From an uncultured Acidimicrobiia bacterium (GTDB lineage: Bacteria; Acidobacteriota; Terriglobia; Versatilivoradales; Versatilivoraceae): a DNA stretch of 64,000 bases. Positions 16,915 through 64,000 of the stretch are shown here, in pieces; position 1 is the stretch's first letter; each line of letters starts with the position of its first letter. The translations under genes were made by a program, and so were the position numbers. Below the pieces are notes generated by a model, which was given only the letters and a program-made list of their open reading frames with translations, searched no databases and was not told the origin of the DNA. The stretch is taken from positions 96,001 to 160,000 of the forward strand of contig CAWBAT010000002.1 in NCBI GenBank assembly GCA_963786955.1. Direction: 5' to 3'.

Positions 16915-16918
16915 TGCT

Positions 16919-18438: not shown

Positions 18439-18580
18439 TACTGCGTTTCAGAAATTCAAGGACATTAACGCCGGGTCGGTGACCCGGCCTACACCTTTTG
18501 TAGGCTTGGGGCTTTCTCAAAGCCCCAACCTCACGCGGCGCCCGTCTTAAGATACGTCACCGTAATTCTGGAAGGGAGTA
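18439..18580. mobile_element. MITE/REPIN, copy 1 (~142 bp)
   Basis: TACT...AGTA ends with imperfect TIRs and internal CTAC/GTAG hairpins; highly similar to 50296-50436. Confidence 0.8.
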
Positions 18581-28816: not shown

Positions 28817-29377
28817 CTATAGATACCGTCTCACACGACTGCAATATTTCATGTACTCTTCACCAAAAACCTTTCGCAGATGCTGCTCTTCTGCCAAGAC
28901 TATTTTGTGGTGAACAGCGGCAACGAATACCCCAATGCAAAATAAGATTGGGTTCAGTGTGTAAAAGACGGCAGCAAGCAGCGTTGCATAAACTCCAAGA
29001 TACATTGGGTTCCGACTGAATCGGAATAAACCATTGATTTTCAGCTGGGTACTTTCTTTGGGAGACCCAATTCTAAAAGAGTCTCCCAGTCCAAACCGTC
29101 CGATGAATAAGAGCAAAAATCCTGAGACCCATAAGATCAGCGAAACCCATTTCAGAAACTCGGGTACCTTGATGAAGGAGAGGTTAATACCCCAGCTATG
29201 CGAAACCATGGCCCCCCAAAGAATAAGAATCGAATACTTACTCATGTAAAAAAGCTTCCGATCAATTGGTGGCTCGCCGTCCATTTCAATATTCCTGCGT
29301 CGAAACAGTTCCCCTCCACCGAACAAAACAACCAAGAACAAGACTGGAAGTAGCGTTATACCGAAAGACTCAATCAT
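28817..29377 (-). CDS. Isoprenylcysteine carboxylmethyltransferase (ICMT/PEMT) family membrane protein
   Basis: GLFRFSRNPMYLG, EEQHL..FGEEY..YC..VRRY. Confidence 0.85.
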   Translation of the reverse strand: MIESFGITLLPVLFLVVLFGGGELFRRRNIEMDGEPPIDRKLFYMSKYSILILWGAMVSHSWGINLSFIKVPEFLKWVSLILWVSGFLLLFIGRFGLGDSFRIGSPKESTQLKINGLFRFSRNPMYLGVYATLLAAVFYTLNPILFCIGVFVAAVHHKIVLAEEQHLRKVFGEEYMKYCSRVRRYL

Positions 29378-29449
29378 CACTAACTTCCTCAAGAGAAGTG
29401 CAATTATTACCAATGCCTTAGCGGCTGGGGTATCACCCGGCAGCGCGTT

Positions 29450-35118: not shown

Positions 35119-35195
35119 TGGTAGCGCTAACGGGGATCGAACCCGTACTCTCTGCCTTGAGAGGGCAGCGTGTTAACCAATTACACCATAGCGCC
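35119..35195 (-). tRNA. trnE: tRNA-Glu (anticodon CTC)
   Basis: ggcgcta..tggtgtaattggttaacac..ctgcc-ctCTCaa-ggcag..gggttcgatcccc..tagcgctaCCA; 77 nt. Confidence 0.95.
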
Positions 35196-45418: not shown

Positions 45419-45569
45419 AGACTTCTGATCCATTTCCTGGATTCAACTCCCGGCACACCGCAATCAGACGCCGCATCATTTTTGCACTGGTTTCCTTCCC
45501 CATCGTCCCCATTCGTCCTCCCTCTTCCAGTTTTATTCATTCCAATGTATCCTCTTGGGGGAGCAAATT

Positions 45570-46661
45570 ATGCCGACAACCATGAATAGTGATATCAAAA
45601 ACAAAGCCATGAGTGCCCGTCAAACCCTGGACGCCTGGACGCGCGAAGTCGTTCAATGGCATTTCGATCCGGAAACCGGCTGTCCATTCTGGCTGGAATA
45701 TGCAAAAACCTTGGATTGGGATCCGCGGTGTGAGATTCAGTCCTACGACGATCTCTCACGCTTTGGTAATTTTCAAGATGAGTGGTTACGGGGAGGGCCC
45801 GTGCGTCGCTGGGTTCCCAGAGCCTATGCCAAAAGTCCGATCTCTATTTTCGAGACTGGAGGCAGCACGGGAGTTCCTAAGTCGAGAATCAATATCGAAG
45901 ATTTTCGAATTGATTATGAAGCCTTTAGTGCCACTCTTCCGGATGATGCGTTTCCCCGTGGCGCCGACTGGCTCTCGATAGGTCCAACTGGCCCCCGGCG
46001 TCTCCGCTTGGCCGTGGAACACCTGGCACAATTTCGCGGCGGCATCTGCTTTATGGTTGATCTTGATCCGCGTTGGGTTATCAAATTGATCAAAATGGGC
46101 GAATTGAAATTGGCGGAACTCTACAAACAACACGTGATCGACCAGGCGTTGACGTTGTTGCGCGCACATCCCAATATCCAGTGCCTGTTTACAACGCCAA
46201 AACTGCTGGAAGCCCTCTGTGAAAAAGTTTCCCTAAAGAAAATGGGGATCCGGGGGGTTTTCTGCGGGGGAACGGAAATGACCCCGCAATTCTATCGTTT
46301 CGCCGTTGAAGAGCTACTGGAAGGCGCTTATTTCGCACCTACCTATGGAAATACTTTGATGGGATTAGCTGTGCATAAACCCCGGGCGAATGAGGACAAT
46401 TATGCGGTCATCTATTATCCTCCGTCACCGCGGGCTATGATCGAAGTGGTCGACCCTAACCAGCCGGACCATGTTGTGGCATATGGTCAAACAGGACGAG
46501 TTCGCCTGACGACCCTGACTCGCGAATTTTTTATGCCGCGTTTCCTTGAACGCGATGAAGCCGAGCGGGAGCCGGTGTGTGCCCTTTATCCGTGGGATGG
46601 GGTTCGTAACGTGCGCCCATTTTCGAAGTACCAATCCACCGTCGTCGAGGGAGTGTATTAA
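45570..46661 (+). CDS. EhpF-like truncated ANL adenylate-forming enzyme (LuxE/PaaK-related)
   Basis: WHFDPETGCPFW, P-loop ETGGSTGVPK, DLDPRWV, GGT, YGNTLMG, ERD; ~363 aa. Confidence 0.75.
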   Translation: MPTTMNSDIKNKAMSARQTLDAWTREVVQWHFDPETGCPFWLEYAKTLDWDPRCEIQSYDDLSRFGNFQDEWLRGGPVRRWVPRAYAKSPISIFETGGSTGVPKSRINIEDFRIDYEAFSATLPDDAFPRGADWLSIGPTGPRRLRLAVEHLAQFRGGICFMVDLDPRWVIKLIKMGELKLAELYKQHVIDQALTLLRAHPNIQCLFTTPKLLEALCEKVSLKKMGIRGVFCGGTEMTPQFYRFAVEELLEGAYFAPTYGNTLMGLAVHKPRANEDNYAVIYYPPSPRAMIEVVDPNQPDHVVAYGQTGRVRLTTLTREFFMPRFLERDEAEREPVCALYPWDGVRNVRPFSKYQSTVVEGVY

Positions 46662-46977
46662 TGTAGACCCATGAATTGTTGTTTGCCAGTCATTCTTCAC
46701 CCCCTTGTAGTCCCCCCTTTTCACACAAGGAAGGGGAACGTCATTTTTCAGAAGAGCATCTATGCCGCCTTGTGCTGCGCCACGACCGATGAGAACAATC
46801 GTCCCCCCTTTGACAAAGGGGGACTTCAGGGGGGTGGGTGCTGGATTTGTAATACTATTTATTGTGTTTGGATGTGTTTCCTTTTCTATTGTGCCTTGAT
46901 CCAGTCGTCGTGTCCGAAATGTCGTTCTGTCCGAAGGACCCTCAATTTTCGAAATCGTGCTTAACCGGAGATTTGTG

Positions 46978-48408
46978 ATGATCCATATCCCCCTGCTCAG
47001 ACGAGGAATATGCTATCAGAGTCTTGACGTGGTGCGGCTTCCGCATTATCAAACTCGAGAACCCTTTGTCGAGCTCAGTCAAGCCAATATTGGATTGATT
47101 CGGCGTGATCTCCTGCATCAGATAGAGAGCCGGGCAGATCTGCAACAATTCTCAACCCAGGAACTTCTCGACATATGTAAAAAAGCGGCCGACTTCTTTG
47201 CCAAGTCCACCTTGCCGCTAGGGGATGCCCGCCAGACACCTGAAGATTATATTCGCCAGGTTTCTGCAACGACAGGTCTTCCTTTCGCTTTGGCCCGCAA
47301 AAACCTCAACAAGATTCAGGGAGTCATGTCTCAAATGGAGACGGTTCTGAATGGGATGACCCGCCACCTCGATTTTGAGATTCTCGATCAGGGTTTCGGA
47401 AAGCTGAATGGCACGGCACTGAGTTATTATGCGAGAACAAACTCACTAGGAGTGGTTCTGCCCAGCAACTCTCCGGGAGTGCACTCCCTTTGGGTACCCG
47501 CAGTACCCCTTAAAATCCCTCTCGTTCTCAAGCCCGGGAGTGGCGAGCCCTGGACGCCTTATCGGCTTGCACAAGCAATGATTCAGGCAGGGTGCCCACC
47601 GAGCGCATTCAGTTATTTTCCCACCGATCATGCGGGTGGCGCCGAAATTCTGCGACAGTGCGGTCGGGGAATGGTTTTTGGAGATACCGCCTCTACCAGC
47701 ATTTGGAACAATGATCCGCGAGTCGAAGTTCATGGGCCGGGCTACAGTAAAATCGTCATTGGAGAAGATTGCATCGAAGAGTGGGAGCGATTTATAGATG
47801 TCATTGTGGCTTCGATCGTTGAAAATGGCGGCCGGTCCTGCGTGAACGCCTCAGGGGTGTGGGTGCCCAAGTATGCCGCGAAGATTGCCGAAGCCCTCGC
47901 CTTCCGTCTGGCCCAAATTGCTCCACGGAGTTCCGAAGACGAAGCGGCCGAACTCGCCCCATTTGCAGATCCTAGAGTGGCGGAGCGAATGGCGCTTCAA
48001 ATTGAGCAAGGTCTTGCCCAACCGGGAGCCCGCGACGTTACCGCTACTTATCGCTCCGGAGGCAGTCTCGTGAATTGGCAAGGTTGCTCCTATCTTGTTC
48101 CGACCATTGTTTTGTGCGACTCTCCGGAGCATCCACTCGCAAATCGGGAGTATTTGTTCCCATTCGCGAGCATCATCGAGATAGGCCAAAACCAGATTCC
48201 GGAAGCACTCGGGAAAAGCTTGGTCGTGACGGCTATTACACGCGACTCTAGGCTTATCGAGCGTTTGATCGCCTCGCCATTGGTCGACCGTCTGAACCTG
48301 GGGCCCATTCCGACCTATCAAATCGCCTGGGACCAGCCTCACGAAGGGAACCTCTTTGAACATCTATACTCCCGGCGAGCTTTCCAGAGCCCAATTGAAG
48401 CGGCCTGA
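46978..48408 (+). CDS. Aldehyde-dehydrogenase-fold acyl reductase (LuxC/EhpG-like)
   Basis: LPSNSPGVH, LKPG, HGPGYSK in place of ELGGK, catalytic Cys in GGRSCVNAS, EYLFPF. Confidence 0.8.
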   Translation: MIHIPLLRRGICYQSLDVVRLPHYQTREPFVELSQANIGLIRRDLLHQIESRADLQQFSTQELLDICKKAADFFAKSTLPLGDARQTPEDYIRQVSATTGLPFALARKNLNKIQGVMSQMETVLNGMTRHLDFEILDQGFGKLNGTALSYYARTNSLGVVLPSNSPGVHSLWVPAVPLKIPLVLKPGSGEPWTPYRLAQAMIQAGCPPSAFSYFPTDHAGGAEILRQCGRGMVFGDTASTSIWNNDPRVEVHGPGYSKIVIGEDCIEEWERFIDVIVASIVENGGRSCVNASGVWVPKYAAKIAEALAFRLAQIAPRSSEDEAAELAPFADPRVAERMALQIEQGLAQPGARDVTATYRSGGSLVNWQGCSYLVPTIVLCDSPEHPLANREYLFPFASIIEIGQNQIPEALGKSLVVTAITRDSRLIERLIASPLVDRLNLGPIPTYQIAWDQPHEGNLFEHLYSRRAFQSPIEAA

Positions 48409-48449
48409 CTCAGTAATCCGTCGCTTCCATTTGAATCGAGGCGGTTTGG

Positions 48450-48989
48450 ATGATGAGCCAAACACTTGTTCTATCTTTTGTTCTCCGCACGATCTTCCTT
48501 GATGACATGAGCACTTCTTTCAAATCGATTCTTTTCACCCTGATCGCTTTAACTTTTATCATTGCGGGAATTCCGTTTCTTTTGCATCACTTTGGATTGC
48601 TGCAATGGACCATGGCTCCATGGACCACGGCAATGCCGGGTGCATTGACATCACTTCTTGGACTTTTGATCTACATCCTCTGTGCGAGAGACTTCGCCCG
48701 CTTTGGCCGAGGGACACCTGCCGTTTGGGACCCACCCAAAACATTTGTTTCGCATGGTCTTTACCGTCTCGTTCGTAACCCTATGTATCTGGGAATTGTC
48801 TTGATCGTCATCGGAGAAGCGTGTTTCTTTCATTCTCGCCCTCTGTTAATCATCTCTCTGTCCATCTGGCTGCTGTTTCACGGTTTTGTCCTTTTTTATG
48901 AGGAGCCCACGCTCACTAAGAAATTTGGAGATTCGTATCGCCAGTATTGCTTGCAAGTTTCCCGCTGGCTTCCCCGTTGGCCTGGATGA
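48450..48989 (+). CDS. ICMT/PEMT-family membrane methyltransferase
   Basis: GRGTPAVWDPP, GLYRLVRNPMYLG, YEEPTL..FGDSY..Y..VSRWLP; alternative start 48507. Confidence 0.85.
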   Translation: MMSQTLVLSFVLRTIFLDDMSTSFKSILFTLIALTFIIAGIPFLLHHFGLLQWTMAPWTTAMPGALTSLLGLLIYILCARDFARFGRGTPAVWDPPKTFVSHGLYRLVRNPMYLGIVLIVIGEACFFHSRPLLIISLSIWLLFHGFVLFYEEPTLTKKFGDSYRQYCLQVSRWLPRWPG

Positions 48990-48998
48990 GTCTATTTT

Positions 48999-50288
48999 AT
49001 GAAAATTCTTTATATCACTGCTGGAGCGGCAGGAATGTATTGCGGTAGTTGTCTCTTGGATAATGCCTTAGCCGCTGAGATGATGGCCCAGCGCCATGAT
49101 GTGATTCTGTTGCCAGTCTATACACCGACGCGGACGGATGACAAGAATGTAAGTCACCAGCGTGTATTTTTTAGCGGCATTAGTATTTACTTGGAGCAGT
49201 ATCTGTCTTTCTTTCGGAAGACCCCTTGGCTGGTTGATCGCCTTTGGGAGTCTTCGTGGCTCCTCAAGATGTTTTCCGGAAGGGGAATTTCCCCGGATCC
49301 AACGCTGTTGGGGGAACTCACCGTGTCCATGCTAAAAGGGGAAGCGGGAAATTTGAAAAAAGAATTTCAGAAACTGGCGGAATGGGTTCGGACCGAGATC
49401 CCTCCGGATATGATTCACTTACCCAATTCCCTGCTGATCAGTATGGCGAGGCCCATTCGTGAGGTTCTGCAACGACCCGTCTGCTGCACTATCCAAGGAG
49501 AGGATCTCTTTATCAGCCGTCTTCAAGAACAGTACCGTCAGCAAGCGGTAGATCTTATTTCCTCACAGGTTCAGTTTGTGGATGCTTTCATATTTTCTAA
49601 TGATTCTTATGCGGATCAGATGTCCCGACTTTTCTCGATCCCTCAAAGCAAGGTGTTCACGATCCCTTTCGGGATCAATCTCTCCAGCTTTTCCAGCCAG
49701 GCTCGCACCACTTCTTCCCCGTTTACCGTGGGCTTCTTTGCCCGAATCGCCCCGGAAAAGGGGTTGCACGTCCTAAGTGGCGCTTATTGCCAGTTGCGGA
49801 AGAAAGGGCTTCTGCCAAAATCGAAGCTGGAGGTTGGTGGCTACTTGGGAGCTGAGCAGCGGAGCTATCTGAATGAAATTGTCGAGACGATGCGGCAAGC
49901 GGGATTGTCGAGCGAATTTCAGTATCACGGAGCTCTCGGGAAGACAGAGAAGGCCAACTTTTACAGAACGCTGGATGTTTTTTCGCTCCCCGCGATTTAT
50001 GACGAACCCAAGGGGCTGTCTGCGCTTGAAGCAATGGCCAGCGGTGTACCGGTTTTGCTCCCCCGGCGCGGCGCCTTTATTGAGATGATCGAAAAGACCT
50101 CAGGCGGCCTCCTGTACAATCCCGAGGATCATGACAGTTTGGCGCAAGCCATCCATCGGGTATATTCGGACCGCGCCATGGCACAAGTGCTCGCTGTCAA
50201 TGGACTGAAAGGGGTTAGGGAACACTATAGCATCGCGCGCATGGCCCACAATGTCTTGGGAGTTTACCAGAAATTGGGAGGAAGCTAG
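48999..50288 (+). CDS. GT4 glycosyltransferase with N-terminal CxxC motif
   Basis: MKILYITAGAAGMYCGSC; ARIAPEKG; EPKGLSALEAMASGVP (E-x7-E). Confidence 0.9.
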   Translation: MKILYITAGAAGMYCGSCLLDNALAAEMMAQRHDVILLPVYTPTRTDDKNVSHQRVFFSGISIYLEQYLSFFRKTPWLVDRLWESSWLLKMFSGRGISPDPTLLGELTVSMLKGEAGNLKKEFQKLAEWVRTEIPPDMIHLPNSLLISMARPIREVLQRPVCCTIQGEDLFISRLQEQYRQQAVDLISSQVQFVDAFIFSNDSYADQMSRLFSIPQSKVFTIPFGINLSSFSSQARTTSSPFTVGFFARIAPEKGLHVLSGAYCQLRKKGLLPKSKLEVGGYLGAEQRSYLNEIVETMRQAGLSSEFQYHGALGKTEKANFYRTLDVFSLPAIYDEPKGLSALEAMASGVPVLLPRRGAFIEMIEKTSGGLLYNPEDHDSLAQAIHRVYSDRAMAQVLAVNGLKGVREHYSIARMAHNVLGVYQKLGGS

Positions 50289-50295
50289 TCCTTAG

Positions 50296-50436
50296 TACTG
50301 CGCTTCAGAAATTCGTTGACGTTAACGCCGGGTCGGTGACCCGGCCTACACCTTTGTAGGCTTGGGGCTTTCTCAAAGCCCCAACCTCACCCGGCGCCTA
50401 TCTCGAGATACGTAACCGTATTTATGAAGCAGAGTA
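50296..50436. mobile_element. MITE/REPIN, copy 2 (~141 bp)
   Basis: tactgcgcttcagaaat...atttatgaagcagagta TIRs; core nearly identical to 18439-18580. Confidence 0.8.
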
Positions 50437-50610
50437 CTGAGCGGCAGAAGTCCATGTTGGTGCTGCGTAAACGCTGGGGCCGGCCGCGATCTACCTCCCC
50501 GGCTGCAGAAGTTACCGCAAAATGATGTACCTTAAAATGAGCGGGACGAAATTGCATGGGTACCTTGAAACAACAGCCCGCCGAACGGCGCCTAAGAAAG
50601 GAAGCCATCA

Positions 50611-51276
50611 TTGCTTGAAATTGACAACCTGAGCAAAAGCTATCCGTCTCCGCAAGGAATCCTGCCGGTGCTTTCGGATATTTCTCTGACGTTACGTTCC
50701 GGAGACGCTGTTTCCATTATGGGTCCCTCAGGCAGTGGCAAGAGTACGCTACTCTATATTCTTGGTGCCCTGGAACCGCCAACTCAAGGCACCGTGCAGT
50801 TGGACGGAGTGAACCCATTCCAACTTCGCGAACTCGAGCTTTCTCGCTTTCGGAACCAAAAAATCGGGTTTATTTTTCAAGATCATTGTCTCTTGCCGCA
50901 ATGCAACGTGCTCGAAAACGTTCTTATTCCATCGCTGGTTGCCCCGGGCAGATTTGATTATCGGCAACGCGCCCAGGACCTATTGGAGAAGGTCGGTTTG
51001 AGTGACCGCCTGGAACATCTTCCTGCTGAACTTTCCGGGGGCGAAAAACAACGCGTTGCTTTGGCCCGTGCTCTCATCTGCAAGCCTTCCCTACTCCTTT
51101 GTGATGAGCCGACAGGAAATCTGGACCGCCTGTCAGCGGAAAGTGTGACAACGTTGTTACTCGATATCCATCGTCGTGAGAGCGACATTCTCATCTTCGT
51201 GACTCACAACCCGGACTTGGCTGCCAGGTTTCCGCTCCGCTTTACCATGCACGACCGGCAACTGGAAGGGATGTAG
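50611..51276 (+). CDS. ABC transporter ATP-binding protein (LolD/MacB-type)
   Basis: [37 protein letters not shown]. Confidence 0.93.
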
Positions 51277-51304
51277 ATCGTTACACGGTATCGAAATATT
51301 CTTC

Positions 51305-54300
51305 ATGCAAATCCATCATCTCGTTTTTCGAAACTTGAGATATTTTTGGAGAACTAACCTCGCGGTGGTTCTGGGAGTGGCCACCGCCGTGTCAGTGCTC
51401 TCAGGAGCCCTCCTGGTAGGGGATTCAGTCCGTGGCAGTCTCCATGACCTCATTTTGAAGCGCATAGGGCAGACCGATTATGTCATCTCCAGTTCAGGCT
51501 ACTTTGGGGAGTCCCTCTCTGTGCGCCTCAAGCAACACCCTTCATTTACGACCGCCTTCGGAGATGCTTGCCCCATGATCGTAAAAGAAGGAATAGCAAC
51601 GCATCAGGAAAATCGGAGACGTGTAAATGACGTCCGAATTTACGGCATTAATGCGGAATTCTGGAGTTTTAACCTCCTCAATAGATCTCCGGGAGAGGTC
51701 AATGGGCGAAACGTTTTGATTGGTTCGGGCCTGGCCAATGAACTAGGAGCGAAGCGAGGCGATTCAATTCTCTTGCGTTTGGAAGCCCCCGATGAAATTC
51801 CCCTCGAGTATTTGCAGGGGAGAAAAGAGAAACTGGGGAAGACCCTTCGTGTCCAAGTTTCCGATATTCTTTCCAATGATCAGCTGGGCTCCTTTGCGCT
51901 CCGCCCTACCCAGGGAGTGGTTCATACAGTCTTCATTTCGCTGTCTTTTCTGCAACACGAGCTTGAGTGCGAACGACAAGCCAATACAATCCTAATTTCT
52001 GAGAATCCGGTTTCATCCGGAACGCTCGGGGCTGATTTTTCAACTCATGAACAAAATCTTCAAGTCGCCCTCCGGGAAAGGGCCAATTTGGACGATCTGG
52101 CACTCAGGCTCCGTTTGAATGAAGATCGAGGGTATTTTACACTTGAAAGCGCTTCGACCCTCCTCACGGAGAGTCAAGCGGCAATGGCTCAGAGCCTGGC
52201 TGCATCTGCGGGGATACTGGCATCCCCCCTCTTCACCTACCTGGCAAATAGCATCGATCATGACAGCCGGAGGGTCCCCTACTCCCTCGTTTCAGGGCTC
52301 GCAAAGCCATTGTTTGATGAGTTGCAAGCAAACTGCAACCAGCAGGCCAAGCCATATACCCAGGCTGCCGGTTCTCCCCCAGGCGTTCCTGTAGAAAGAA
52401 GGAACTCAGCGGGCACTCTCCCGCTTCCTCCTATTATTTTAAACAACTGGACAGCTGAGGATTTGGGCTCATCGCCGGGTGATACCATAACTCTTGAATA
52501 TTTTGTTTGGGAGGAAAACGGCCTCCTAGCCACAAAGACCACAGATTTCTGCCTGCAAGCCATAGTGCCGATCCGTGAGTTGGCGGCTGATCGCGATCTG
52601 GCGCCGGAATACCCAGGCATCAGTGACTCTGAGAATCTTTCTGATTGGGACCCTCCATTTCCTTTGGATCTCCGCAGGATTCGGCCGAAGGACGAAGAAT
52701 ACTGGAAGAAATTCAAAACGACACCCAAAGGATTTATTCCTTTGGAAATTGCCCAACAACTCTGGAAATCACGCTTCGGTGCTTTCACATCCGTCAGGTT
52801 CTATCCGCCCGAGACCATGAGCCACTCGTCTGTGGGATATCCGGTCCGACCGTTAAACTTAGCAAATTTGGCAGATCATTTTGCAGGAAAACTCACGCCA
52901 CTCGTCACACAAAACCTTTCTACCTTCTCCATTTGGCCGCTGCGGCAGGATGGTGTCCGGGCATCAGAGGGGGCTACGGATTTTGGAGCTTATTTTACCT
53001 ATTTCAGTTTTTTCCTGGTACTTTCGGCAGTGGCTCTGGCAGGACTATTCTTCCGGTTTGGGTTAGAGCAGCGAATCCGGGAAATTGGGATCCTCCGATC
53101 ACTGGGATTCTCCATCAGTGCGATTAAACGTGTCTTCCTGATCGAAGGAATTGTGATTTCTACACTGGGGGGGATGCTGGGAATCATCGGCGCATGGGGG
53201 TTTAGTCAGGTGGTTGTTCATGGTTTGAAAACCTGGTGGATCGGAGCCGTACACACAAAAGAACTTTCAGTCCATATTACTTCGTTCCCTTTGTGGATCG
53301 GCTTCGTGAGCGGGGGTGCTTCCGCTTCGCTCGTCATTTTGTTTTCCCTTCGAATGCTTGGTGCTTCCTCTCCGCGCACCCTTTTATCAGGGGGCTGGTT
53401 TACGTTTCCACCGTTCTCACCGCAAGGAGCGACCGAAAAAGATTTACTGGCCTCCGCATTCAAAAACGGTACCTACATTTCTGCCCATTCCCAGTGGAGG
53501 TATTTTTTGCCGGCTTTTATATTTACCCTTATCGGACTGCTCCTTTTAATTGCCTCTAGAACTGGAATCATGAGCCAAACACTTGGTTTTTTCAGTGCCG
53601 GGATGGCCTTTTTGATTGCAGTACTCTCTGCAATATATTGCTGGCTCCGACATGTTCGAGGAAAGGGACTCGCCCCTCATCCCCCATGGGCTCTGGCCGC
53701 TTTGGGATTGCGAAACCTCAGGCACCGGCCTGCCCGAAGCCTTTTTAGCATTGCCTTGATTGCCGTCGCCACTTTTATCATTGTTTCAGTGGATGCGTTT
53801 CGTCAGGTGGACCACGGCAGTTCGATCGACAAGAAGTCAGGCACAGGTGGCTTTCCACTCCAGGCCGAATCGCTCTTACCCATCGTTTTCAATCTCAATC
53901 AAGCAGCAAGCCGCAGGGCCTTGAACCTCGAGGTCTTAAACACGCCGGAATTTGGCAGAACACGAATCGATCGATTCCGAGTTCGCCCCGGGGACGATAC
54001 GAGCTGCCTCAACTTATACCTGCCACGAAATCCGCGCATCTTGGCTCCAACTTCGGACTTCTTGGCCGAGAATCGTTTCACATTTCATTCATCTTTGGCG
54101 TCAAGTCCAGAGGAAATCGCCAACCCGTGGCTTCTATTGACACGAGCGTTCGATGCGGAGGTTATTCCGGCGATCGTGGACCGCAACTCCTTGAATTACA
54201 CTTTACATCTCAAATTGGGAGACGTACTCATCTTGAACCGTGCCGATGGCAGTAAGATTCGGCTTCGAATCATGGGGGTCTTGGCGGACAGCCTATTTCA

Positions 54301-54877: not shown

Positions 54878-54947
54878 AATTGGACTTCCACAAGTTCCGG
54901 TAGTATTGGTAAATTGATTTCAATTTATTTTTGAAAGGAGGGACACA

Positions 54948-56204: not shown

Positions 56205-56398
56205 TTCTGTGTCAAGCAAACGAATGGGGTTTGTGGGGCGGTCTCGTTGATACCTCCGCAGAAATTGTCCCCCTTCGTCAAGGGGGACTCGCGGGGGGTT
56301 GGTAGGGTGGTCTCGCTGAGACCCCCCTTACTGATATCTGACTCTTTCAATGCGCTCGATGAGCGTGCTCGGCCTTTTAGAGGAGAATGAGAGATTTG

Positions 56399-57664
56399 AT
56401 GAAAAAGATCGTTTTATTTCTGGCAGTCCTGCTGACAACCATCCCGGACCTCTCTTTTTGCGAAAATTGGCCACAGTGGCGCGGACCCAGCCTGAACGGG
56501 GTGAGTGTCGAAGACAATTTACCGGTCCGTTGGAGCAATGAGAAGAACATCCTTTGGAAGCTGGCTTTGCCTGAACGAAGTGGTGCCACGCCTATCATCT
56601 GGGGAGAGACTATCTTTTTGAATATTGCCGAAGCGGACGTGCTTTCCTTGTGGGCAGTGAACCGAAAAGACGGCAGTGTGCTTTGGAAACGTCCGCTGGG
56701 CAGCGGAAATATCCGGATGAATAAGCAAAACATGTCTTCCCCCTCACCCGTGACAGATGGCCTGAATGTTTATGTCATGACGGGTACCGGTATTTTAAAA
56801 GGTTTTGATTTTGCAGGAAAAGAATTATGGGTAAGAGATATTCAGCAGGATTATGGGAAGTTTGGCTTAAATTGGGGCTATGCCTCCTCGCCCCTGCTTT
56901 ACGGTGATTCTCTCTATGTTCAGGTTTTACATGGAATGAAAACTGATGCCCCATCGTATTTGCTGCGAATACACAAGAAAACGGGAAGGTCCGTTTGGAA
57001 AGTGGAACGCCCGACACCAGCGATTACGGAATCACCCGATTCATACACGACACCCACGCTGGTCCGCCATTCGGCTGAAGTCGAGATTGTTGTGACGGGT
57101 GGTGATTGCATGACCGGCCACGACCCAGAGACAGGAAAAGAGCTTTGGCGGGCGAACGGTTTCAATCCTGACAATGACCCCTTTCACCGGATTATTGCTT
57201 CTCCGGTAGTTGCGGACGAAATTATTTACGCCCCGACTAAGGTTCGTCCTTTAATGGCGTTTCGTTCCGGTGGCCGCGGCGATATCAGCCAATCTCATCT
57301 TCTGTGGTCATTTCAAAATGGGCCGGACGTTCCATCTCCGGTGAGCGACGGCAAGTACTTCTTCAGTGTCAATGACAAGGGAATAGCATGGTGTCTCGAT
57401 GCCAAGACCGGGAAAGAAATCTGGGGGCCACAACGGCTAACGCCCGCCATTTATAGTGCTTCTCCAGTTTTGGCGAATGGTAAACTTTATGTCATCAACG
57501 AAGAAGGGTTAACCACCGTACTTAAGGCCGGGCCCACTTTTGAAATTGTAGCCGAGAATCCACTCAACGATTACACACTCAGTTCCCCAGCCATTTCTAA
57601 CGGCCACATTTATATTCGGACCGCCAAATATCTTTACTGTATCGGGAAACCCGGAAATCGCTAA
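56399..57664 (+). CDS. PQQ-binding-like beta-propeller protein
   Basis: Signal MKKIVLF; NWPQWRGP; SSP repeats; LYCIG. Confidence 0.88.
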   Translation: MKKIVLFLAVLLTTIPDLSFCENWPQWRGPSLNGVSVEDNLPVRWSNEKNILWKLALPERSGATPIIWGETIFLNIAEADVLSLWAVNRKDGSVLWKRPLGSGNIRMNKQNMSSPSPVTDGLNVYVMTGTGILKGFDFAGKELWVRDIQQDYGKFGLNWGYASSPLLYGDSLYVQVLHGMKTDAPSYLLRIHKKTGRSVWKVERPTPAITESPDSYTTPTLVRHSAEVEIVVTGGDCMTGHDPETGKELWRANGFNPDNDPFHRIIASPVVADEIIYAPTKVRPLMAFRSGGRGDISQSHLLWSFQNGPDVPSPVSDGKYFFSVNDKGIAWCLDAKTGKEIWGPQRLTPAIYSASPVLANGKLYVINEEGLTTVLKAGPTFEIVAENPLNDYTLSSPAISNGHIYIRTAKYLYCIGKPGNR

Positions 57665-58005
57665 ACCTGGAATTTGAAATTGCTTTTGCGTCGTCTGGTT
57701 GAGCGGGCCCACACGCGCGTTCTACCCAATAGGCTCGTGAAGTGCAAGAAGACGTTGTAGCGAGGCTCTATGAGCGCCGACCTCATTGCTTTCCCAACAG
57801 CGGGCTGATCACTCCATTCCCTCTTCGAAGCAGGCTGTTGGAGATGTCTGGATCAAAGTGGTAGCCACGATGAATATGTTTGCGGCATTCATCGTGGGCT
57901 TTTCTTCGCCATCCAGCGGAGTGCACTCCCCCCTCACCCCCGGCCCCTCTCCCGCACTCGTTGGGGCGAGGGGTTGCAGGTATTCAACTATTGGGCGCTG
58001 ACAAA

Positions 58006-58455
58006 TTACGAAGAAGGTTTGAAATAAAGCACCATTCCGGCGCCCACCGATACTAAGAGAAATCCCAAGTACAGCAAGGGATTCGGCGAAGTCTTGGGAG
58101 GATGGAGCCACATGGAATACAATACATTCACCAGCGGTGCTCCGCCGAAGACCAGCGGCATCACATAAGTGGGCGTCCCACCAAATTTAAACGCCCAGAT
58201 AATGCAGATTGCCCCTAGCGCACCCAGCCCTCCGGCAACAGTAGCCCCAACAGTTCCACTCCAATTGAAGTTTTTCAATCCACCCTGAGAGGAGAGCGTC
58301 ACAGCAGGTACCAAAACCCCCATGAGGAAATAAGCGAATCCCACACAAAGTAAGGCCTTCATGGGATTGCCGAGCTGAACTTGACCCCGATGGAGTGAGG
58401 GCCCATACAGCCCCCATGAAACAACTGCACCTAAGACAAAAATGAGCCATGTCAT
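58006..58455 (-). CDS. Small 5-TM membrane protein (DMT/EamA-like)
   Basis: SWGLYGP.LH.G, GALGA, VMPLVFGGAPLVN; RBS aggag; start refined to MTWLIF. Confidence 0.75.
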   Translation of the reverse strand: MTWLIFVLGAVVSWGLYGPSLHRGQVQLGNPMKALLCVGFAYFLMGVLVPAVTLSSQGGLKNFNWSGTVGATVAGGLGALGAICIIWAFKFGGTPTYVMPLVFGGAPLVNVLYSMWLHPPKTSPNPLLYLGFLLVSVGAGMVLYFKPSS

Positions 58456-58471
58456 ACTCGTCCGTCTCCTT

Positions 58472-59938
58472 TCACTGCTTTCCGAAACAATAAAGAGTCT
58501 TCTTGGTCCGAATGTAAAGCTGCCCATCGCCAAAAGCTGGAGTGGAATAGCATTCCTCGTTCAGGTCATTGGTGGCCAGGACCTCCCAGTTTCTTCCAGG
58601 TTGGATTACGCTGACTTTTCCTTCCTGGCTGATCGTAAATATCTTGTCATCGGCGGCAACCGGCGACGAGAAATAATCTCCGGGAGCATCTTGCAACCTC
58701 GCTTGCTTAACCACTGTCCCAGTGTTTGCGTCTAATGCAGTCAGGATGCCTCCTTCTTTCATCAGGTAGAGGATATTTTTGTAGAATAACGGAGAAGGCA
58801 CATTGGGCAAGGACTTACGGTAACGCCATACAAAACTGCGTTCTGTTTCATCCCCATGACTACCTAACCGAAACGCCGAGACGGAGTTAACTGCAGAACG
58901 GCGCAAACGGTAGAAACGCCAGTCCCGTTCACTCACAAAACCATCCCGGTCAAGATCTAACGCCTTCCAATCTTTTTTGAGCTGCTCGTTTGATATTTCT
59001 TCCGCAGACAGCTTCCCATCGTGATTGGTATCCTCTTTCTTCAGAATTTCATCAAATGGAGGAATGTTTTCTTGTTGCCCTTCATCGGACCCGCCTGCCC
59101 AGCCATTGATGAAGATCATGTCATCATTCATCACAGGCGTTCCCTTCATTTGCCAGCTCAAACCACCCAGCCACCAGAGTTCTTTTCCCGAATCTGCCGA
59201 GTAGGCAGTCAATTGGAATGAGCCTGAGATCAGAATCTGGTGCGGTCCGCTTGCAGGTTTATAGACAATCGGTGTCGCGAATCCCCGGCTGAATTCCGGA
59301 CGCTCGACCCGCCAGCATATTTTTCCGGTATCTTTGTTAATTGCGAGAAGAAAGGATCCACTCTCCTGATCGCAGTTCATGACCACTTTGTCATCAACAA
59401 GAATGGGCGAAGCACCCAAGCCCATAGGGTTGTTGAAAGGTCCCAAAGGAAGATGCCAAAGCTCTCTCCCTTCCGTGCTATATGCAATCAAGCCGAAATC
59501 GGTAAAGAAAGCATAAACATTCTTTCCATCGGTCACGGGACTTGAAGATGCAGGAGTATTGGCTTTGTGCAGTTCTTCGCTGCGATTTTTGGGTACTTCG
59601 CGTTGCCAAAGGATCTTCCCGTTTCTTCTCTCTATACCCAGGACATAGAGTTTCTCATCTTGAAAAGCCGTTACAAAAATGGCGTCGCTCGTAAGAACGG
59701 GGGAAGAATGTCCTGGCGGCAATGTTGTTTTCCAGAGGAGATTTTTAGTTGGACCGAATTCCGTGGGCAGCCCATTACACTTCTCCGCCAGTCCCGAGCT
59801 ATTAGGGCCCCGGAATTGCGCCCAACCCGGAGGATTTGCATCACCCTGGAGAATCCCCACCAAACCGAGATAGAGAATCCATGGTGACACGAACAAAAAC
59901 CAACAATCCCTATCCCGCTTCAAGATTCGGAGTTTCAT
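58472..59938 (-). CDS. PQQ-binding-like beta-propeller protein with inserted EF-hand pair
   Basis: WAQFRGPN; DTNHDGKLSAEE and DLDRDGFVSERD. Confidence 0.88.
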   Translation of the reverse strand: MKLRILKRDRDCWFLFVSPWILYLGLVGILQGDANPPGWAQFRGPNSSGLAEKCNGLPTEFGPTKNLLWKTTLPPGHSSPVLTSDAIFVTAFQDEKLYVLGIERRNGKILWQREVPKNRSEELHKANTPASSSPVTDGKNVYAFFTDFGLIAYSTEGRELWHLPLGPFNNPMGLGASPILVDDKVVMNCDQESGSFLLAINKDTGKICWRVERPEFSRGFATPIVYKPASGPHQILISGSFQLTAYSADSGKELWWLGGLSWQMKGTPVMNDDMIFINGWAGGSDEGQQENIPPFDEILKKEDTNHDGKLSAEEISNEQLKKDWKALDLDRDGFVSERDWRFYRLRRSAVNSVSAFRLGSHGDETERSFVWRYRKSLPNVPSPLFYKNILYLMKEGGILTALDANTGTVVKQARLQDAPGDYFSSPVAADDKIFTISQEGKVSVIQPGRNWEVLATNDLNEECYSTPAFGDGQLYIRTKKTLYCFGKQ

Positions 59939-60190
59939 TGAGAATTCATAAAGATAGGAATGTAAGCCATTGAAAGTTCTCGCTTACTTCTCGATCTCGC
60001 CCACATTGCATCAATTGTGAAGACGTGGAAGAGAAATTCGGTGCTGATAAGCCGTCTCGCGTTATAGAATTCGCCCCCGACCATTCATATTCCAGCCCGA
60101 TAGCCCACGATTGTAGCAATCGGTCGGGACTATTGCAAACCATGCCTTGACTATGGGATAGTGACCCTTCATTTCGAAGAAAGGAATGCC

Positions 60191-61534
60191 ATGAGAAACT
60201 CCGGTCAGACACGTGAGAAACTCCGCTTGACGCCCGTGCAGTGGGTAATTTGTCTCATTGCCATTTTGGGATTTGCCTTTGACACCTATGAATTACTGAT
60301 GCTCCCGTTGATCATCCGTCCCGCCCTGATGGAACTGGTTCAAGCCAAGCCGGGGACACCACTCTTCAACGAATGGATCGGAAAACTCTTCTATATTCCC
60401 GCGCTCGCTGGCGGGATTTTCGGATTGCTTGGCGGTTATCTGACAGATTTGCTGGGAAGGCGGCGTGTCCTGGTCTGGAGCATTTTGCTTTACGCGTTTT
60501 CAGCCTGTGCCGCGGGTTATGCGACCTCTATTCAAATGCTCCTCTTTTTTCGCTGCACAACATTTATCGGCGTATGCGTCGAATTTGTGGCTGCGGTCGC
60601 CTGGCTGGCGGAATCATTTCCAGACCCGAAGCAGCGTGAAACAGTTCTGGGGTACACACAGGCCTTTTCATCGATCGGGGGTGTCATGGTGACAGGCGCC
60701 TATTACCTCGCTGTTTCCTATGCTCCGTTGCTCCCCACGATCTACGGAGCCCACGAGCCTTGGCGCTACACGCTCATCTCAGGGCTGATTCCAGCGATTC
60801 CGCTTCTCCTGGTACGTCCATTTCTTCCGGAATCACCCGCCTGGCAACACCAGAAATCCTTGGGGACATTAAAGAGGCCCAGCCTTTCGGAACTCTTTGC
60901 ACCGGTATTCCGAAAGACAACATTCGTGACGACGCTCCTGTTCGCCTGTAGTTACGGCGCCGCCTTTGGGGCCATCCAGCACACGCCCAGAATGGTTCCG
61001 GGACTCGAGGAGGTTCGTTCGCTGCCGAAGCCGGTGCAGGAGCAAAAGGTGAGTCGTGTTCAGCTCTTTCAGGAGATGGGGGGACTTGCAGGGCGTTTTC
61101 TTCTAGCCTTTCTGGCGATTCGAATTGTCAGCCGAGGCAGACTCCTTCGAATCTTCCAGTTGCCCGGCTTGGTAGTCTTGCCGTTTGTTTTTTTCTATGC
61201 CGCGACACATAGTCTGGCGTTATTACAATGGGGAATTTTTGTAGCGGGACTGTTGACTGTCGGACAATTTAGCTTTTGGGGAAACTATCTGCCACGAGTC
61301 TATCCGACACACTTACGAGGAACGGGTGAAAGTTTTGCTGCCAACGTGGGCGGCCGCATGATTGGAACTTCTGCCGCCCTGCTCACCACTACTTTGGCGA
61401 GCTTAATGCCTGGAGGGAATCCATCCACCCAATTGGCCTATGCTGCGGCCATTGTAGCGTCCGGTACCTACCTCTTAGGGTTTGCGGCCAGTTTCTGGCT
61501 TCCTGAACCCGCGCGGGCAGAATTGCCTGAGTGA
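60191..61534 (+). CDS. MFS transporter
   Basis: GFAFDTYE, GYLTDLLGRRRVL motif A, YPTHLRGTG; ~12 TM helices. Confidence 0.92.
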   Translation: MRNSGQTREKLRLTPVQWVICLIAILGFAFDTYELLMLPLIIRPALMELVQAKPGTPLFNEWIGKLFYIPALAGGIFGLLGGYLTDLLGRRRVLVWSILLYAFSACAAGYATSIQMLLFFRCTTFIGVCVEFVAAVAWLAESFPDPKQRETVLGYTQAFSSIGGVMVTGAYYLAVSYAPLLPTIYGAHEPWRYTLISGLIPAIPLLLVRPFLPESPAWQHQKSLGTLKRPSLSELFAPVFRKTTFVTTLLFACSYGAAFGAIQHTPRMVPGLEEVRSLPKPVQEQKVSRVQLFQEMGGLAGRFLLAFLAIRIVSRGRLLRIFQLPGLVVLPFVFFYAATHSLALLQWGIFVAGLLTVGQFSFWGNYLPRVYPTHLRGTGESFAANVGGRMIGTSAALLTTTLASLMPGGNPSTQLAYAAAIVASGTYLLGFAASFWLPEPARAELPE

Positions 61535-61570
61535 TTCTTATCCCGTCCGGGGCCCTCAGGATATTTTCAC

Positions 61571-62743
61571 TCAACCAAAGCAATATAACCGCCCGTCTTG
61601 AGAGCCGATGACAATCCTTCCCTCCGCGATTGCCGGGGAGGCGGAAAGGGGTGCTCCTGCCTCAAACTCCCAGAGTTTCTTTCCCGTCGTTAAACCCAAC
61701 ACGTAAAAATGCCCGTCGCTGGATCCGATAAACACGCGCTGATCGGCAATGGCAGGGGAACTGTCCACCCGCGCGTTGGTTGGAAATGTCCAGAGTGATT
61801 TTCCGGTTTGTGCGTCGAGACAGTAGACCAGCTTGTCCCGCCCGCCCAAAACAACCTTCCCTTCCATGATGCCTGCTGACGAGTAGAACGGAAACTGGCG
61901 TTCCGGATTCTCATAGCGCCAAACAATTTTATGCGATTGCCTGTCAACGCTCAGGACTTCGTTGTTAAAGGTTCCGTAATACGCTCGGTTCTCCTCCAAA
62001 GCAGGAGAAGCTCCCGTATAGCCTCCGGAGGAAACGCTGAACGCTTCTTTCCCATCGCTGATTCGGATCGCTCTGAAAATTTCGTCGCACCCGGAAATAT
62101 AGACCAGGCCTGCGGAGATACTGGGAGTGCAGTGGACGGGACCGCTAATCCGAAACTTCCAAAGCAAGGTGCCAGTGCGTGCTGCCAAACAATAAAGGGT
62201 TTCATCATAAGATCCAATAAATACTCGATCTCCGCTGACGACCGGAGAGGACTTGATCTCAGATCCGGTCGTGAACGTCCAGGCTCTTTTCCCGTCTATC
62301 GATCGCACGGCGTGAAATGTCCCCTGCAAATCACCTACATAAACAATTCCATTCGCAACACAAGGAGACGATTCGCCAATTCCCTGGTCTGTCTTATACT
62401 TCCAGCGTACGGAGCCATTTCTGAGATCCAGGGCGAGCAACTCCGAAGCCTGTGTCCCCACAAATGCTGTACCCTCAACGATCGCGGCTGAGGACTCAAT
62501 TGCTTCTCCCGCTTCATAGTTCCAGAGGGTTTTCAAAGCCGTTGGCACACGGCAACGGGCCACTCCCGTTAATTCCAGATTCCCGCGAAACTGCGGCCAG
62601 CTGGTATCCAATTTGTCTTCTTGTGGAGTCCTGGCAAAAGGAGCCAAGAGCATGGAAATTGGCGCCAACAAGAAGGATCGTCGTGGAGTCTGTGAACAGG
62701 AGGGGTTCTTCTTACGGTTCATAGCCGAAGGTCTGTGCGTCAT
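61571..62743 (-). CDS. PQQ-repeat (BamB/AfsK-like) beta-propeller protein, Tat-like N-terminus
   Basis: PRRSFL; WPQFRGN; about eight regular SSP..G..Y.G..DG..Y repeats. Confidence 0.88.
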   Translation of the reverse strand: MTHRPSAMNRKKNPSCSQTPRRSFLLAPISMLLAPFARTPQEDKLDTSWPQFRGNLELTGVARCRVPTALKTLWNYEAGEAIESSAAIVEGTAFVGTQASELLALDLRNGSVRWKYKTDQGIGESSPCVANGIVYVGDLQGTFHAVRSIDGKRAWTFTTGSEIKSSPVVSGDRVFIGSYDETLYCLAARTGTLLWKFRISGPVHCTPSISAGLVYISGCDEIFRAIRISDGKEAFSVSSGGYTGASPALEENRAYYGTFNNEVLSVDRQSHKIVWRYENPERQFPFYSSAGIMEGKVVLGGRDKLVYCLDAQTGKSLWTFPTNARVDSSPAIADQRVFIGSSDGHFYVLGLTTGKKLWEFEAGAPLSASPAIAEGRIVIGSQDGRLYCFG

Positions 62744-62904
62744 AATAAACCGTCTGCTTGCAGGCTTCTACACGTGTGACAGGATACCTGCGTATCTATT
62801 TAATACAAACGTATTATGTATTGTTGCGAATCACCTACGGCGCATAAGAAACACGCACCGTGGCTACCCAAGCGGGATTGCGACATAAATTTAATGCGTT
62901 TGTA

Positions 62905-64000
62905 TTAATAGGCTGCCTGATAGATTTCTAGCGCTCCGGCAGCATTGAATAGGCGAGGATTGAATTGCCCTGTCCATTGCTGTGTCGCAAGCTCTGCCAA
63001 CGATTGCAGTTCGTCTTGAGCGATACCTAATTCTCTAAGCCTGAGCGGGAATCCTGCAATCTTCGCAAGGCTCTCCAAATGGGAAGCCAAGCCTTCTGTC
63101 TCATTGCCGCCGTTTGAATGAAGAGTAGATGCTCTCAGCAGTTCACGATAATGGTCGCCAACCACGCTTCCATTCCAGCGAACCACGGAAGGGAGCAACA
63201 ACGCAACAGCGATACCATGGGTCGTACCGAAACGGGCGGTCAGGGGATTTGCGCACGCATGCGTTGCGCCCAACATGGAATTTTCGATGGCCACGCCCGC
63301 AAAGTGAGCTCCCAGTTGCATGGCAGCCCTGGCTTCGAGATCGCTGCCATCCTTCAAAACGATCTCGAAGTTTCTTTCCAGGAGATTCCACGCTTCCAAT
63401 GTATAGAGACGAGATATGGGGGTTCGTTTGGTGGTGACGAAGGTCTCAACGGCATGGGCAATCGCGTCGTAGCCAGCCGCGGCGGTAACGTGTGGGGGCT
63501 GTGTGACTGTCAAGAGAGGGTCCAAAATGACAATTCGAAACGCAGCCTGCGGGTCGCCACAGGCCATCTTCACATGCGACTCGGCATCAGAGATCAATGC
63601 ATAACTTTGAACCTCGCTCCCCGTCCCGGCAGTTGTGGGGATTCCAATCATAGGCAACATCGGTTGTCGAGCTTTCCCATATCCCCAATAGTCCTGGATT
63701 CTCCCGCCATTACTGAGTACAAAATTGATTCCTTTGGCGCAGTCCATGGAGCTGCCACCACCAAGACCAATCAAGGAATCGATTCCGAATGGTAACGCCC
63801 ATTGGTGGCCTTGTTCCACGACGACACTGTCGGGATTCTCCCCAAAATCGTGAAACGAAATGACCTCGATTCCCGTTTGTTTGAGAATCCGTTCCGCCTG
63901 GTCGACAAAGCCCTGTGCCCGAATCCCGGGGTCAGCAACCAGCAGCGTTCGGCTAAAACCTAATTTTCTAGCCAGATCGCCGAGCCGATCAAAAGTGTTT
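62905..64000 (-). CDS. Iron-containing (group III) alcohol dehydrogenase, 5' end beyond the window
   Basis: GGGSSMD, PTTAGTGSE, DAIAHAVE, HACA, HG; frame stays open to the window edge. Confidence 0.92.
   Translation of the reverse strand, partial: NTFDRLGDLARKLGFSRTLLVADPGIRAQGFVDQAERILKQTGIEVISFHDFGENPDSVVVEQGHQWALPFGIDSLIGLGGGSSMDCAKGINFVLSNGGRIQDYWGYGKARQPMLPMIGIPTTAGTGSEVQSYALISDAESHVKMACGDPQAAFRIVILDPLLTVTQPPHVTAAAGYDAIAHAVETFVTTKRTPISRLYTLEAWNLLERNFEIVLKDGSDLEARAAMQLGAHFAGVAIENSMLGATHACANPLTARFGTTHGIAVALLLPSVVRWNGSVVGDHYRELLRASTLHSNGGNETEGLASHLESLAKIAGFPLRLRELGIAQDELQSLAELATQQWTGQFNPRLFNAAGALEIYQAAY

Follow-up and report, generated by a model that had tools for sequence, protein, structure and literature searches.

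The 64,000-nucleotide stretch analysed here (positions 96,001 to 160,000 of contig CAWBAT010000002.1, assembly GCA_963786955.1; hereafter the window, to which all coordinates refer) comes from an uncultured bacterium placed in the Acidobacteriota and carries a gene cluster for an EhpF-like adenylating enzyme, an EhpG-like reductase, a glycosyltransferase of family GT4, an ATP-binding cassette (ABC) transporter and β-propeller proteins. This cluster, which is conserved very strongly in soil Acidobacteriota, probably makes a glycosylated envelope compound. We read it as an operon-like unit whose cytoplasmic enzymes would build a small glycosylated compound that an envelope machine would then handle, and we give this reading a probability of roughly 0.45, somewhat short of even. 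The parts are of known kinds; new are the way they are combined, how well the adenylating enzyme is conserved and the occurrence of a propeller beside a YbbAP-like system. Targeted literature searches found no description of such a cluster.

Genes were called from a listing of open reading frames (ORFs) together with Pfam and NCBIfam scans of the window proteins, and every gene named in an earlier note on this DNA was found where that note had placed it. The cluster begins on the forward strand with the EhpF-like enzyme (45570-46661; 363 amino acids (aa), corresponding to the N-terminal domain of an ANL enzyme only; the ORF opens with TTG at 45555), followed by a predicted EhpG-like NAD(P)H thioester reductase of aldehyde dehydrogenase (ALDH) fold (46978-48408; 476 aa; Aldedh, 1.9e-14, 53.5 bits; the ORF opens with GTG at 46957). 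Next are an integral-membrane methyltransferase of the PEMT/ICMT family (48450-48989; PF04191, 2.1e-12) and the GT4 enzyme, a glycosyltransferase of the retaining type with a YCGxC loop in its N-terminal part (48999-50288; Glycos_transf_1, 88 bits against a cut-off of 26.4). The envelope part comprises a LolD/YbbA-like ABC ATPase (50611-51276), a YbbP-like permease of 1190 aa in which Pfam recognizes two fused FtsX stretches (51305-54877), and two β-propellers with PQQ_2 repeats: the BamB-like propeller 1, with an N-terminal signal or anchor (54948-56204; PF13360, 1.4e-30), and the secreted propeller 2 (56387-57664; PF13360, 2.1e-26). A small EamA/DMT-like membrane protein of 150 aa with four transmembrane (TM) helices follows on the reverse strand (58006-58458); its EamA match is weak and was obtained through an orthologue. 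None of the EhpF-like, ALDH-like, GT4, ATPase, permease, propeller and EamA-like proteins is matched by an NCBIfam model above its cut-off.

That this run is more than a chance arrangement follows from its conservation in other genomes, which the window by itself does not show. One genome per species was scanned, giving at least 595 confirmed loci, of which the best 80 were examined; these are labelled as 77 Acidobacteriota, two Clostridia and one “bacterium,” and the acidobacterial loci among them span Pyrinomonadaceae, Blastocatellia, Bryobacteraceae or Bryobacterales, Terriglobia and Chloracidobacterium. Sixteen window proteins were compared with the 80 loci by tblastn, and neighbours were counted only where the contig leaves room. 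The EhpF-like gene is present in 80/80 loci at about 80% identity. Downstream of it lie the ALDH-like gene in 62 of 67 loci and the GT4 gene in 56 of 56; an orthologue of the ABC ATPase (63-69% identical) follows GT4 in 35 of 50, and the fused double-FtsX permease is found in 30 of 42. The order and strand of these five genes are kept across Pyrinomonadaceae, Blastocatellia, Bryobacteraceae and Terriglobia metagenome-assembled genomes.

Propellers and the EamA-like protein were counted in the 28 ABC-bearing loci with at least 9.9 kb of downstream sequence. A propeller of any kind is located downstream in 18 of these, as against one of ten loci lacking the ABC genes. Orthologues of propeller 2 (at least 55% identity) occur in nine of the 28, those of 66-71% identity lying directly after the permease, and orthologues of propeller 1 (at least 50% identity) in two; propeller 1 orthologues of 58-63% identity are present in loci L010, L034 and L038. 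The small EamA-like protein has an orthologue (65-72% identity) beside the transporter in seven. By contrast, the membrane methyltransferase, a major facilitator superfamily (MFS) protein, an Fe-type alcohol dehydrogenase (Fe-ADH), PBP1 and the upstream ATPase of the window were detected by tblastn in 0/80 loci, and propellers 3 and 4, which lie beyond the EamA-like gene, have no close orthologue there, with matches at paralogue level only (no more than 42% identity). From these counts the conserved unit is EhpF-like + ALDH-like + GT4, usually with the ABC ATPase and permease, plus a propeller and sometimes the EamA-like protein, and it ends before 58472. Of the run described in the earlier note, these genes thus recur together and the methyltransferase, MFS and Fe-ADH do not; among the propeller partners it had suggested, propeller 2 is retained, as its orthologues stand beside the transporter, and propellers 3 and 4 are not.

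The spacing between GT4 and the ABC ATPase falls to 25-27 bp in some loci (tblastn coordinates; for example L003, L023 and L028). Run-on or fused protein predictions join EhpF+ALDH, ALDH+GT4, GT4+ABC and ALDH+GT4+ABC, the latter two kinds in more distant relatives. Since all of them are single-member clusters and possibly gene-calling run-ons, we take them solely as evidence of adjacency. Three further single-member predictions (P0125, P0129 and P0131) combine an N-terminal PQQ_2 propeller with a C-terminal EhpF-like domain and are either real fusions or run-on calls. Directly upstream of the cluster are an ECF sigma factor (TIGR02999) in 19 loci, a 1700-aa Ser/Thr kinase-TPR protein in 27 and a hotdog thioesterase in seven. 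Two Blastocatellia loci contain a second, diverged EhpF-like/ALDH-like pair of 62-64% and 44-45% identity (L040:8232-11539 and L049:4160-9352); a propeller follows this pair in both and a WG-repeat protein in L049, while GT4 lies directly after the first EhpF-like copy.

In comparisons of the window with nine loci, amino acid identity amounts to 79-82% for the EhpF-like enzyme, 62-68% for the ALDH-like protein, 66-67% for the ATPase (eight of the nine loci), 52-55% for GT4 and 48-50% for the permease. Fourfold-degenerate sites are identical at 21-40% across the compared genes, and at 27-40% in the EhpF-like gene (nine loci), which is to say that they are saturated. Given that about 80% of the amino acids are identical despite saturated synonymous sites, selection on the EhpF-like enzyme is very strong. 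Recent horizontal spread as the source of this identity was rejected, because the fourfold sites are saturated and a quick maximum-likelihood tree roughly follows taxonomy: sequences group approximately by family with short end branches (median 0.06), and branches of 4-10 lead to the relatives in Streptomyces, on Escherichia coli plasmids and in Burkholderia. We therefore ascribe the high identity to purifying selection that is strong and of long standing rather than to recent transfer. The enzyme is also abundant: at 90% identity, the protein collection holds no fewer than 8000 clusters of it, and the best 120 among them have identities of 78-99% and carry the names “hypothetical” or “PaaK-like.” The whole EhpF family, searched in 1.84 billion representatives at 50% identity, gives 1550 matches at E ≤ 1e-3 and 303 at E ≤ 1e-30, and the full-length matches in this library are 71% identical at best, then 55% and 52% (P0159 and P0160) and then 41-44%. 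From this pattern we conclude that the acidobacterial form is one tight orthologue group and makes up the bulk of the EhpF family in nature. Clusters of the family are also listed in the Atlas for Actinomycetota and Planctomycetota.

On sequence comparison, the two enzymes are homologous to EhpF and EhpG, a two-protein aryl-carboxylate reductase from the D-alanylgriseoluteic acid (phenazine) cluster of Pantoea/Enterobacter agglomerans, and in both cases the homology extends over the full length. The EhpF-like enzyme matches the PDB entry of EhpF (3hgu) with a phmmer E-value of 1.9e-43, its residues 21-368 aligning with residues 20-369 of the 369-aa chain. Like EhpF, it has no C-terminal ANL domain and shares the EhpF type of C-terminus, ending in EGVY in 75 of 77 orthologues; the adenylation P-loop TGG[ST]TGxPK is present in all 77. 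Its Pfam match to AMP-binding (26 bits) is below the cut-off. As in the ehp cluster, the adenylating gene stands directly before the gene of the ALDH-fold protein. EhpF and EhpG have reportedly been proposed, by Bera et al. in 2010, to convert phenazine-1,6-dicarboxylate (PDC) to its 6-aldehyde. The ALDH-like protein is 27% identical over 424 aa (E 8e-39) to an ALDH-family protein encoded beside an EhpF homologue on an E. coli phenazine-cluster plasmid, while canonical ALDHs match it at about 1e-8 only; the counterpart of this plasmid gene in a like-ordered Proteus operon is listed as ehpG in a table of PMC11278526.

The residues of the ALDH-like protein fit a thioester-reducing rather than an acid-forming enzyme. 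The catalytic Cys (GR[SG]C[VI]N) is found in 60 of 60 orthologues, and the oxyanion Asn (N164, aligned to the Asn of PWNFP in 4o5h) and the cofactor Lys are invariant in alignment A3 of 23 sequences. The general-base Glu, with which hydrolytic ALDHs cleave the thioester, is missing: at that site (the ELGGK motif) 60/60 orthologues have His (HGPGxxK) and 0/60 have EGPGxxK, and the ALDH-family partner on the E. coli plasmid has Gln. A Ser aligns to Glu195 of NAD-specific ALDHs, a replacement that favours NADPH. The conversion of an acid to an aldehyde through an adenylate and an acyl-Cys, as put forward in the earlier note, fits the EhpF/EhpG homology and these residues. The same logic is used by LuxE and LuxC, in which an adenylate is followed by an acyl-Cys on an ALDH-fold protein and then by the aldehyde. 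Membership of those families was rejected: neither protein has a Pfam match at E ≤ 0.01 to LuxE (PF04443) or LuxC (PF05893), and the cluster is without luxAB and luxD. The label “LuxC-like” given earlier to the reductase was thus loose, and EhpG-like describes it better. A further two-protein, ATP-dependent aryl-acid reductase is GriC/GriD of grixazone biosynthesis in Streptomyces griseus, in which an AMP-binding protein and an ALDH-like reductase convert 3-amino-4-hydroxybenzoate (3,4-AHBA) to the aldehyde (as described in PMC10179220); we compared it by that description only, and it differs in working within a secondary-metabolite cluster.

An aromatic acid is our best guess for the substrate, from the contexts of the family relatives. 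On plasmids, the pairs of these relatives adjoin genes for DAHP synthase, PhzE/PabB-like proteins, PhzD and PhzF, or a polyketide synthase (PKS), and NCBI names some relatives “arylcarboxylate reductase,” including Streptomyces homologues that are 36% identical. The acidobacterial cluster differs from the ehp cluster in this respect, in that it has no phz or other scaffold genes; identity to the Ehp proteins is 27-37%, and very long branches separate them in the quick tree. Neither the window nor the annotated conserved neighbours contain phz, DAHP synthase, PKS or nonribosomal peptide synthetase (NRPS) genes, in agreement with what the earlier note had said of scaffold genes. A second difference is that the acidobacterial pair is always joined to GT4 and usually to the ABC system.

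The model of the GT4 enzyme (pLDDT 80.8) has a GT-B fold, and its nearest Foldseek matches are MshA, SPS (sucrose-phosphate synthase), GlgM, BshA and HepE, with E-values of about 1e-19 to 1e-17 for MshA, SPS and BshA and query-normalized TM-scores of 0.69-0.73 for the top matches. The likeness to GT4 enzymes of the MshA/BshA type extends to sequence in the C-terminal donor domain, for which there is a PDB match. The N-terminal acceptor domain, in contrast, has no PDB sequence match; its YCGxC loop is kept by 58 of 58 orthologues, and His33 and Cys163 are likewise invariant. The window cluster also has no deacetylase or Cys-ligase genes nearby. An attempt to name the acceptor from the fold was dropped, as the Foldseek matches point only to a generic GT-B enzyme.

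The methyltransferase of the window, with hydrophobic stretches consistent with about four TM helices, is separated from its neighbours by 42 bp and 10 bp. Two related loci have instead a methyltransferase of the NpmA/KamB family between EhpF-like and GT4 (L071:3987-4628 and L080:11174-11821; PF24675, 192-204 bits, below the NCBIfam exception cut-offs), and both are without the ALDH-like gene. With a membrane type between ALDH and GT4 in the window and an NpmA-family type in these loci, methylation looks like a lineage-specific decoration.

The ATPase scores 234.9 bits against the LolD model TIGR02211 (cut-off 307) and 193.6 bits against the YbbA model (cut-off 336), so that we assign it a family-level similarity to YbbA/LolD and not the status of an equivalog. 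Its gene is 29 bp from that of the permease. Hydropathy of the latter suggests ten TM helices arranged 4+2+4, with periplasmic domains at about residues 43-560 (between TM1 and TM2) and 835-1068 (between TM7 and TM8). The permease model is of moderate quality (pLDDT 67.8); its best Foldseek match is E. coli YbbAP (9ge7, E 2.1e-17, at a TM-score of only 0.27-0.36), followed by BceAB, MacB and LolCDE. No HlyD-type membrane-fusion domain was seen in the window genes between 38491 and 64000 or in the annotated conserved neighbour families, the singleton ORFs of the loci having been scanned in part. The designation “MacB/Lol-type” in the earlier note was accordingly too loose for a YbbAP-like transporter with ten TM helices, two periplasmic domains and no membrane-fusion protein in view.

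YbbP is described as having ten TM helices, with one periplasmic domain between TM1 and TM2 and the other between TM7 and TM8, and Type VII ABC systems as typically having a periplasmic partner; that of YbbAP, TesA, is encoded alongside and is seated between both domains (PMC12646458). The window system is like YbbAP-TesA in its fused permease topology, best fold match, YbbA-like ATPase and periplasmic protein encoded next door. It differs in that its neighbour is a β-propeller, a candidate partner by gene position, and not a TesA-type hydrolase, and in its linkage to cytoplasmic biosynthetic genes. Its first periplasmic domain is also larger: at about 520 aa, it is roughly 290 aa above our estimate for the corresponding domain of YbbP (804-residue chain).

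Both propellers 1 and 2 are about 420 aa in length. We propose propeller 2, which has a signal peptide, as a candidate periplasmic partner of the permease; the best PDB match of its profile is BamB (4e-13). Two more specific identities were rejected for propellers 1 and 2. As BamB they score 55.7 and 48.1 bits (TIGR03300, cut-off 285), a likeness at the propeller level only, and as quinoproteins 23.1 and 19.3 bits with PF01011 (cut-off 26.7) and 36.9 and 28.4 bits with TIGR03075 (cut-off 480). The orthologue through which the EamA-like protein was recognized matches PF00892 at 1.6e-5, below the cut-off, and the Atlas clusters closest to the protein, which occur most often in Acidobacteriota, bear the automatic name “putative EamA domain-containing protein.”

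Put together, these features suggest the following sequence of events. By homology, the EhpF-like enzyme would adenylate a carboxylic acid, most likely a small aromatic one in view of the contexts of the relatives. Homology and residues suggest that the acyl group would pass to the invariant Cys of the EhpG-like partner, from which NAD(P)H would release the aldehyde; as His replaces the general-base Glu, no hydrolysis is expected at this step. The invariant linkage of GT4 suggests that it would attach a sugar to a hydroxyl of this molecule, either ahead of the reduction or following it, and in some lineages a methyltransferase, in the window the membrane-embedded PEMT/ICMT type, may be added. 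From synteny and fold, the EamA-like protein and the YbbAP-like Type VII ABC system would act at the inner membrane, moving the product or extracting it, and the product would then be presented to the secreted β-propeller much as TesA receives substrates from YbbAP. That the reduced product is glycosylated and delivered to the periplasm, as also proposed in the earlier note, is what we infer from gene linkage: GT4 is tied to the pair by invariant adjacency, and the transporter by synteny in 35/50 loci and the ALDH+GT4+ABC run-ons. The intermediate step of that note, reduction of the aldehyde to an alcohol by the Fe-ADH, has no conserved basis; the sole hint of it comes from a single run-on protein (P0123) that contains a fragment of an Fe-ADH.

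Several observations weigh against this reading. The ABC genes are not adjacent in 15 of 50 loci, mostly of Pyrinomonadaceae, where a 115-aa ORF and an M1 peptidase are found instead (after GT4 in 14 and 13 loci, respectively, many of them transporter-less), and the ALDH-like gene is absent in five of 67 (L016, L040, L049, L071 and L080). In the window, GT4 and the ABC ATPase are 323 bp apart with hairpins in between, so that separate transcription of the two is possible. With a pI of 6.3, in the window as in the median of 29, the N-terminal domain of GT4 is not basic, and the enzymes with the nearest folds act mostly on soluble acceptors; a membrane-lipid product therefore fits poorly. An aldehyde cannot itself accept a glycosyl group, and the related loci showed no conserved enzyme that would form an alcohol. 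PQQ_2 propellers are abundant paralogues, six of them in the window, and some propeller adjacency is for that reason expected by chance.

Among the other explanations, the one that survives best, and which we nevertheless think unlikely, is that aromatic acids from outside the cell, for instance phenazine or lignin-derived acids, are detoxified or converted; they would be taken up, reduced, glycosylated and pumped out in an inducible stress response. In its favour are the sigma factor and kinase genes directly upstream in 19 and 27 loci and the window MFS protein, which resembles aromatic-acid:H+ symporters (TIGR00895, 1.4e-31, below the cut-off) and has the Fe-ADH nearby; the characterized relatives act on phenazine-1,6-dicarboxylate, according to the PDB naming, or on 3,4-AHBA (PMC10179220, as described there). 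However, neither the MFS nor the Fe-ADH gene occurs in any of the 80 related loci; about 80% identity with saturated synonymous sites, together with at least 8000 clusters at 90% identity, would be unusual for an accessory enzyme; and the transporter is of the Type VII extractor kind, with neither a fusion protein nor an outer-membrane duct, and is not a classical efflux pump.

It is also rather doubtful that the cluster consists of two independent modules that are merely syntenic, with the EhpF-like/ALDH-like/GT4 triad making a cytoplasmic metabolite, for example a cofactor, thiol or solute, and the ABC/permease/propeller unit doing unrelated envelope work. The 15 loci in which the triad has no adjacent transporter, the 323-bp gap in the window and the resemblance of GT4 to MshA, BshA and SPS, all enzymes of soluble metabolites, would agree with such a division. 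Set against this, 35 of 50 loci agree in order and strand, and they span classes between which synonymous sites are saturated; the GT4-ABC gaps can be as small as 25-27 bp, and GT4+ABC and ALDH+GT4+ABC run-on predictions are known from more distant relatives.

A fatty-acid-derived glycolipid resembling those of heterocysts, formed from fatty acid through aldehyde or alcohol to glycoside and extracted by a DevCA-like ABC system for the outer envelope, is improbable: the adenylating enzyme is EhpF-like and not LuxE- or FadD-like, the annotated contexts of its relatives are all aromatic-acid pathways, no fatty-acid or PKS genes were seen among the annotated conserved neighbours and no DevB/HlyD adaptor by Pfam among the window genes, and the N-domain of GT4 is not basic. 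What recommends it is that DevBCA-HgdD exports heterocyst glycolipids, a glycosylated reduced-acyl product, by a MacB-type ABC system (as reported in PMC6161253), that the window ATPase and permease match DevA (8.7e-45) and DevC (5e-4), both below the cut-offs, that HepE is among the GT4 fold matches, and that a methyltransferase embedded in the membrane, as encoded in the window operon, points to a lipophilic substrate. Apart from the adaptor, DevBCA-HgdD differs from the window system in its TolC-like component, no gene for which was seen in the window; the permease of the window is fused and of the YbbP type, and the acid-activating enzyme is of the aryl-acid type.

Returning to the reading of a glycosylated compound handled by an envelope machine, a bolder form of it, which we regard as quite a long shot, is that the product is a near-housekeeping envelope molecule of major soil Acidobacteriota. 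A glycosylated aryl-aldehyde or aryl-alcohol would in that case serve as a periplasmic prosthetic group or anchor, handed by a new kind of Type VII ABC system to cofactor-less PQQ-like propellers, with the propeller replacing LolA, EnvC or TesA as the partner. Were this true, the adenylating enzyme would owe its 80% identity to a multi-protein process that is essential and tightly channelled.

The remaining features of the region are as follows. The two long gaps of the cluster, 296 bp between EhpF-like and ALDH-like and 323 bp between GT4 and ABC, contain G+C-rich hairpins (46800-46824 and 50330-50390) that could be repeat elements or terminators lacking a T-run. A 97-aa ORF in the first gap (46671-46964) was rejected as a carrier-protein gene, having no Pfam or NCBIfam match and an odd, Cys-rich composition, and looks like non-coding spacer. 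A promoter and terminator scan of 45300-64000 gave the same counts as shuffled sequences, and an Rfam scan of the whole window matched only a tRNA (35122-35195), with no riboswitch in the two long gaps.

Beyond the EamA-like gene, and ending 13 bp before its start on the same (reverse) strand, lies propeller 3 (58472-59938), which Pfam shows to be a PQQ_2 protein with an EF-hand calcium-binding insert at about residues 294-315. It is followed by the MFS gene (60161-61534, forward strand), whose best NCBIfam matches, all below the cut-offs, are to aromatic-acid:H+ symporters (TIGR00895, MhpT and PcaK); by propeller 4 (61571-62743, reverse strand); and by the Fe-ADH gene (62905-64000, reverse strand), which lacks its 5′ end at the window end and is most similar to ErcA and lactaldehyde reductase. 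The MFS and Fe-ADH genes fit an aromatic-acid theme in the source organism alone and are not conserved with the cluster. Two further PQQ_2 propellers (15616-18520, reverse strand), which bring the number in the 64-kb window to six, and a second PEMT-family methyltransferase (28817-29413, reverse strand) indicate that both families are rich in paralogues in the source genome. Directly upstream of the cluster, a 1248-aa P-loop protein (41672-45418, forward strand) matches BrxC/PglY of BREX (PADLOC, 1.9e-25) and, in its N-terminal third only, DUF6079 (8.6e-34), with a weak match to sigma-70 region 4 at its C-terminus; no other BREX genes adjoin it, and it is found in 0/80 related loci. An IS200-like Y1 transposase gene (434-886, forward strand) is situated close to the window start.

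Rule-based finders of biosynthetic gene clusters are unlikely to flag this cluster, as the earlier note had also supposed. It would supply a naturally split carboxylic-acid reductase for biocatalysis, and it would give the newly defined YbbAP class a second and different type of partner. Most EhpF-family sequences in nature, by abundance, belong to the acidobacterial orthologue group; of the family, only rare members from secondary metabolism have been studied. The Acidobacteriota rank with the most numerous bacteria of soils, and a role is known for only a few of the genes conserved in them; a cluster of this kind would point to a new envelope compound in these organisms.

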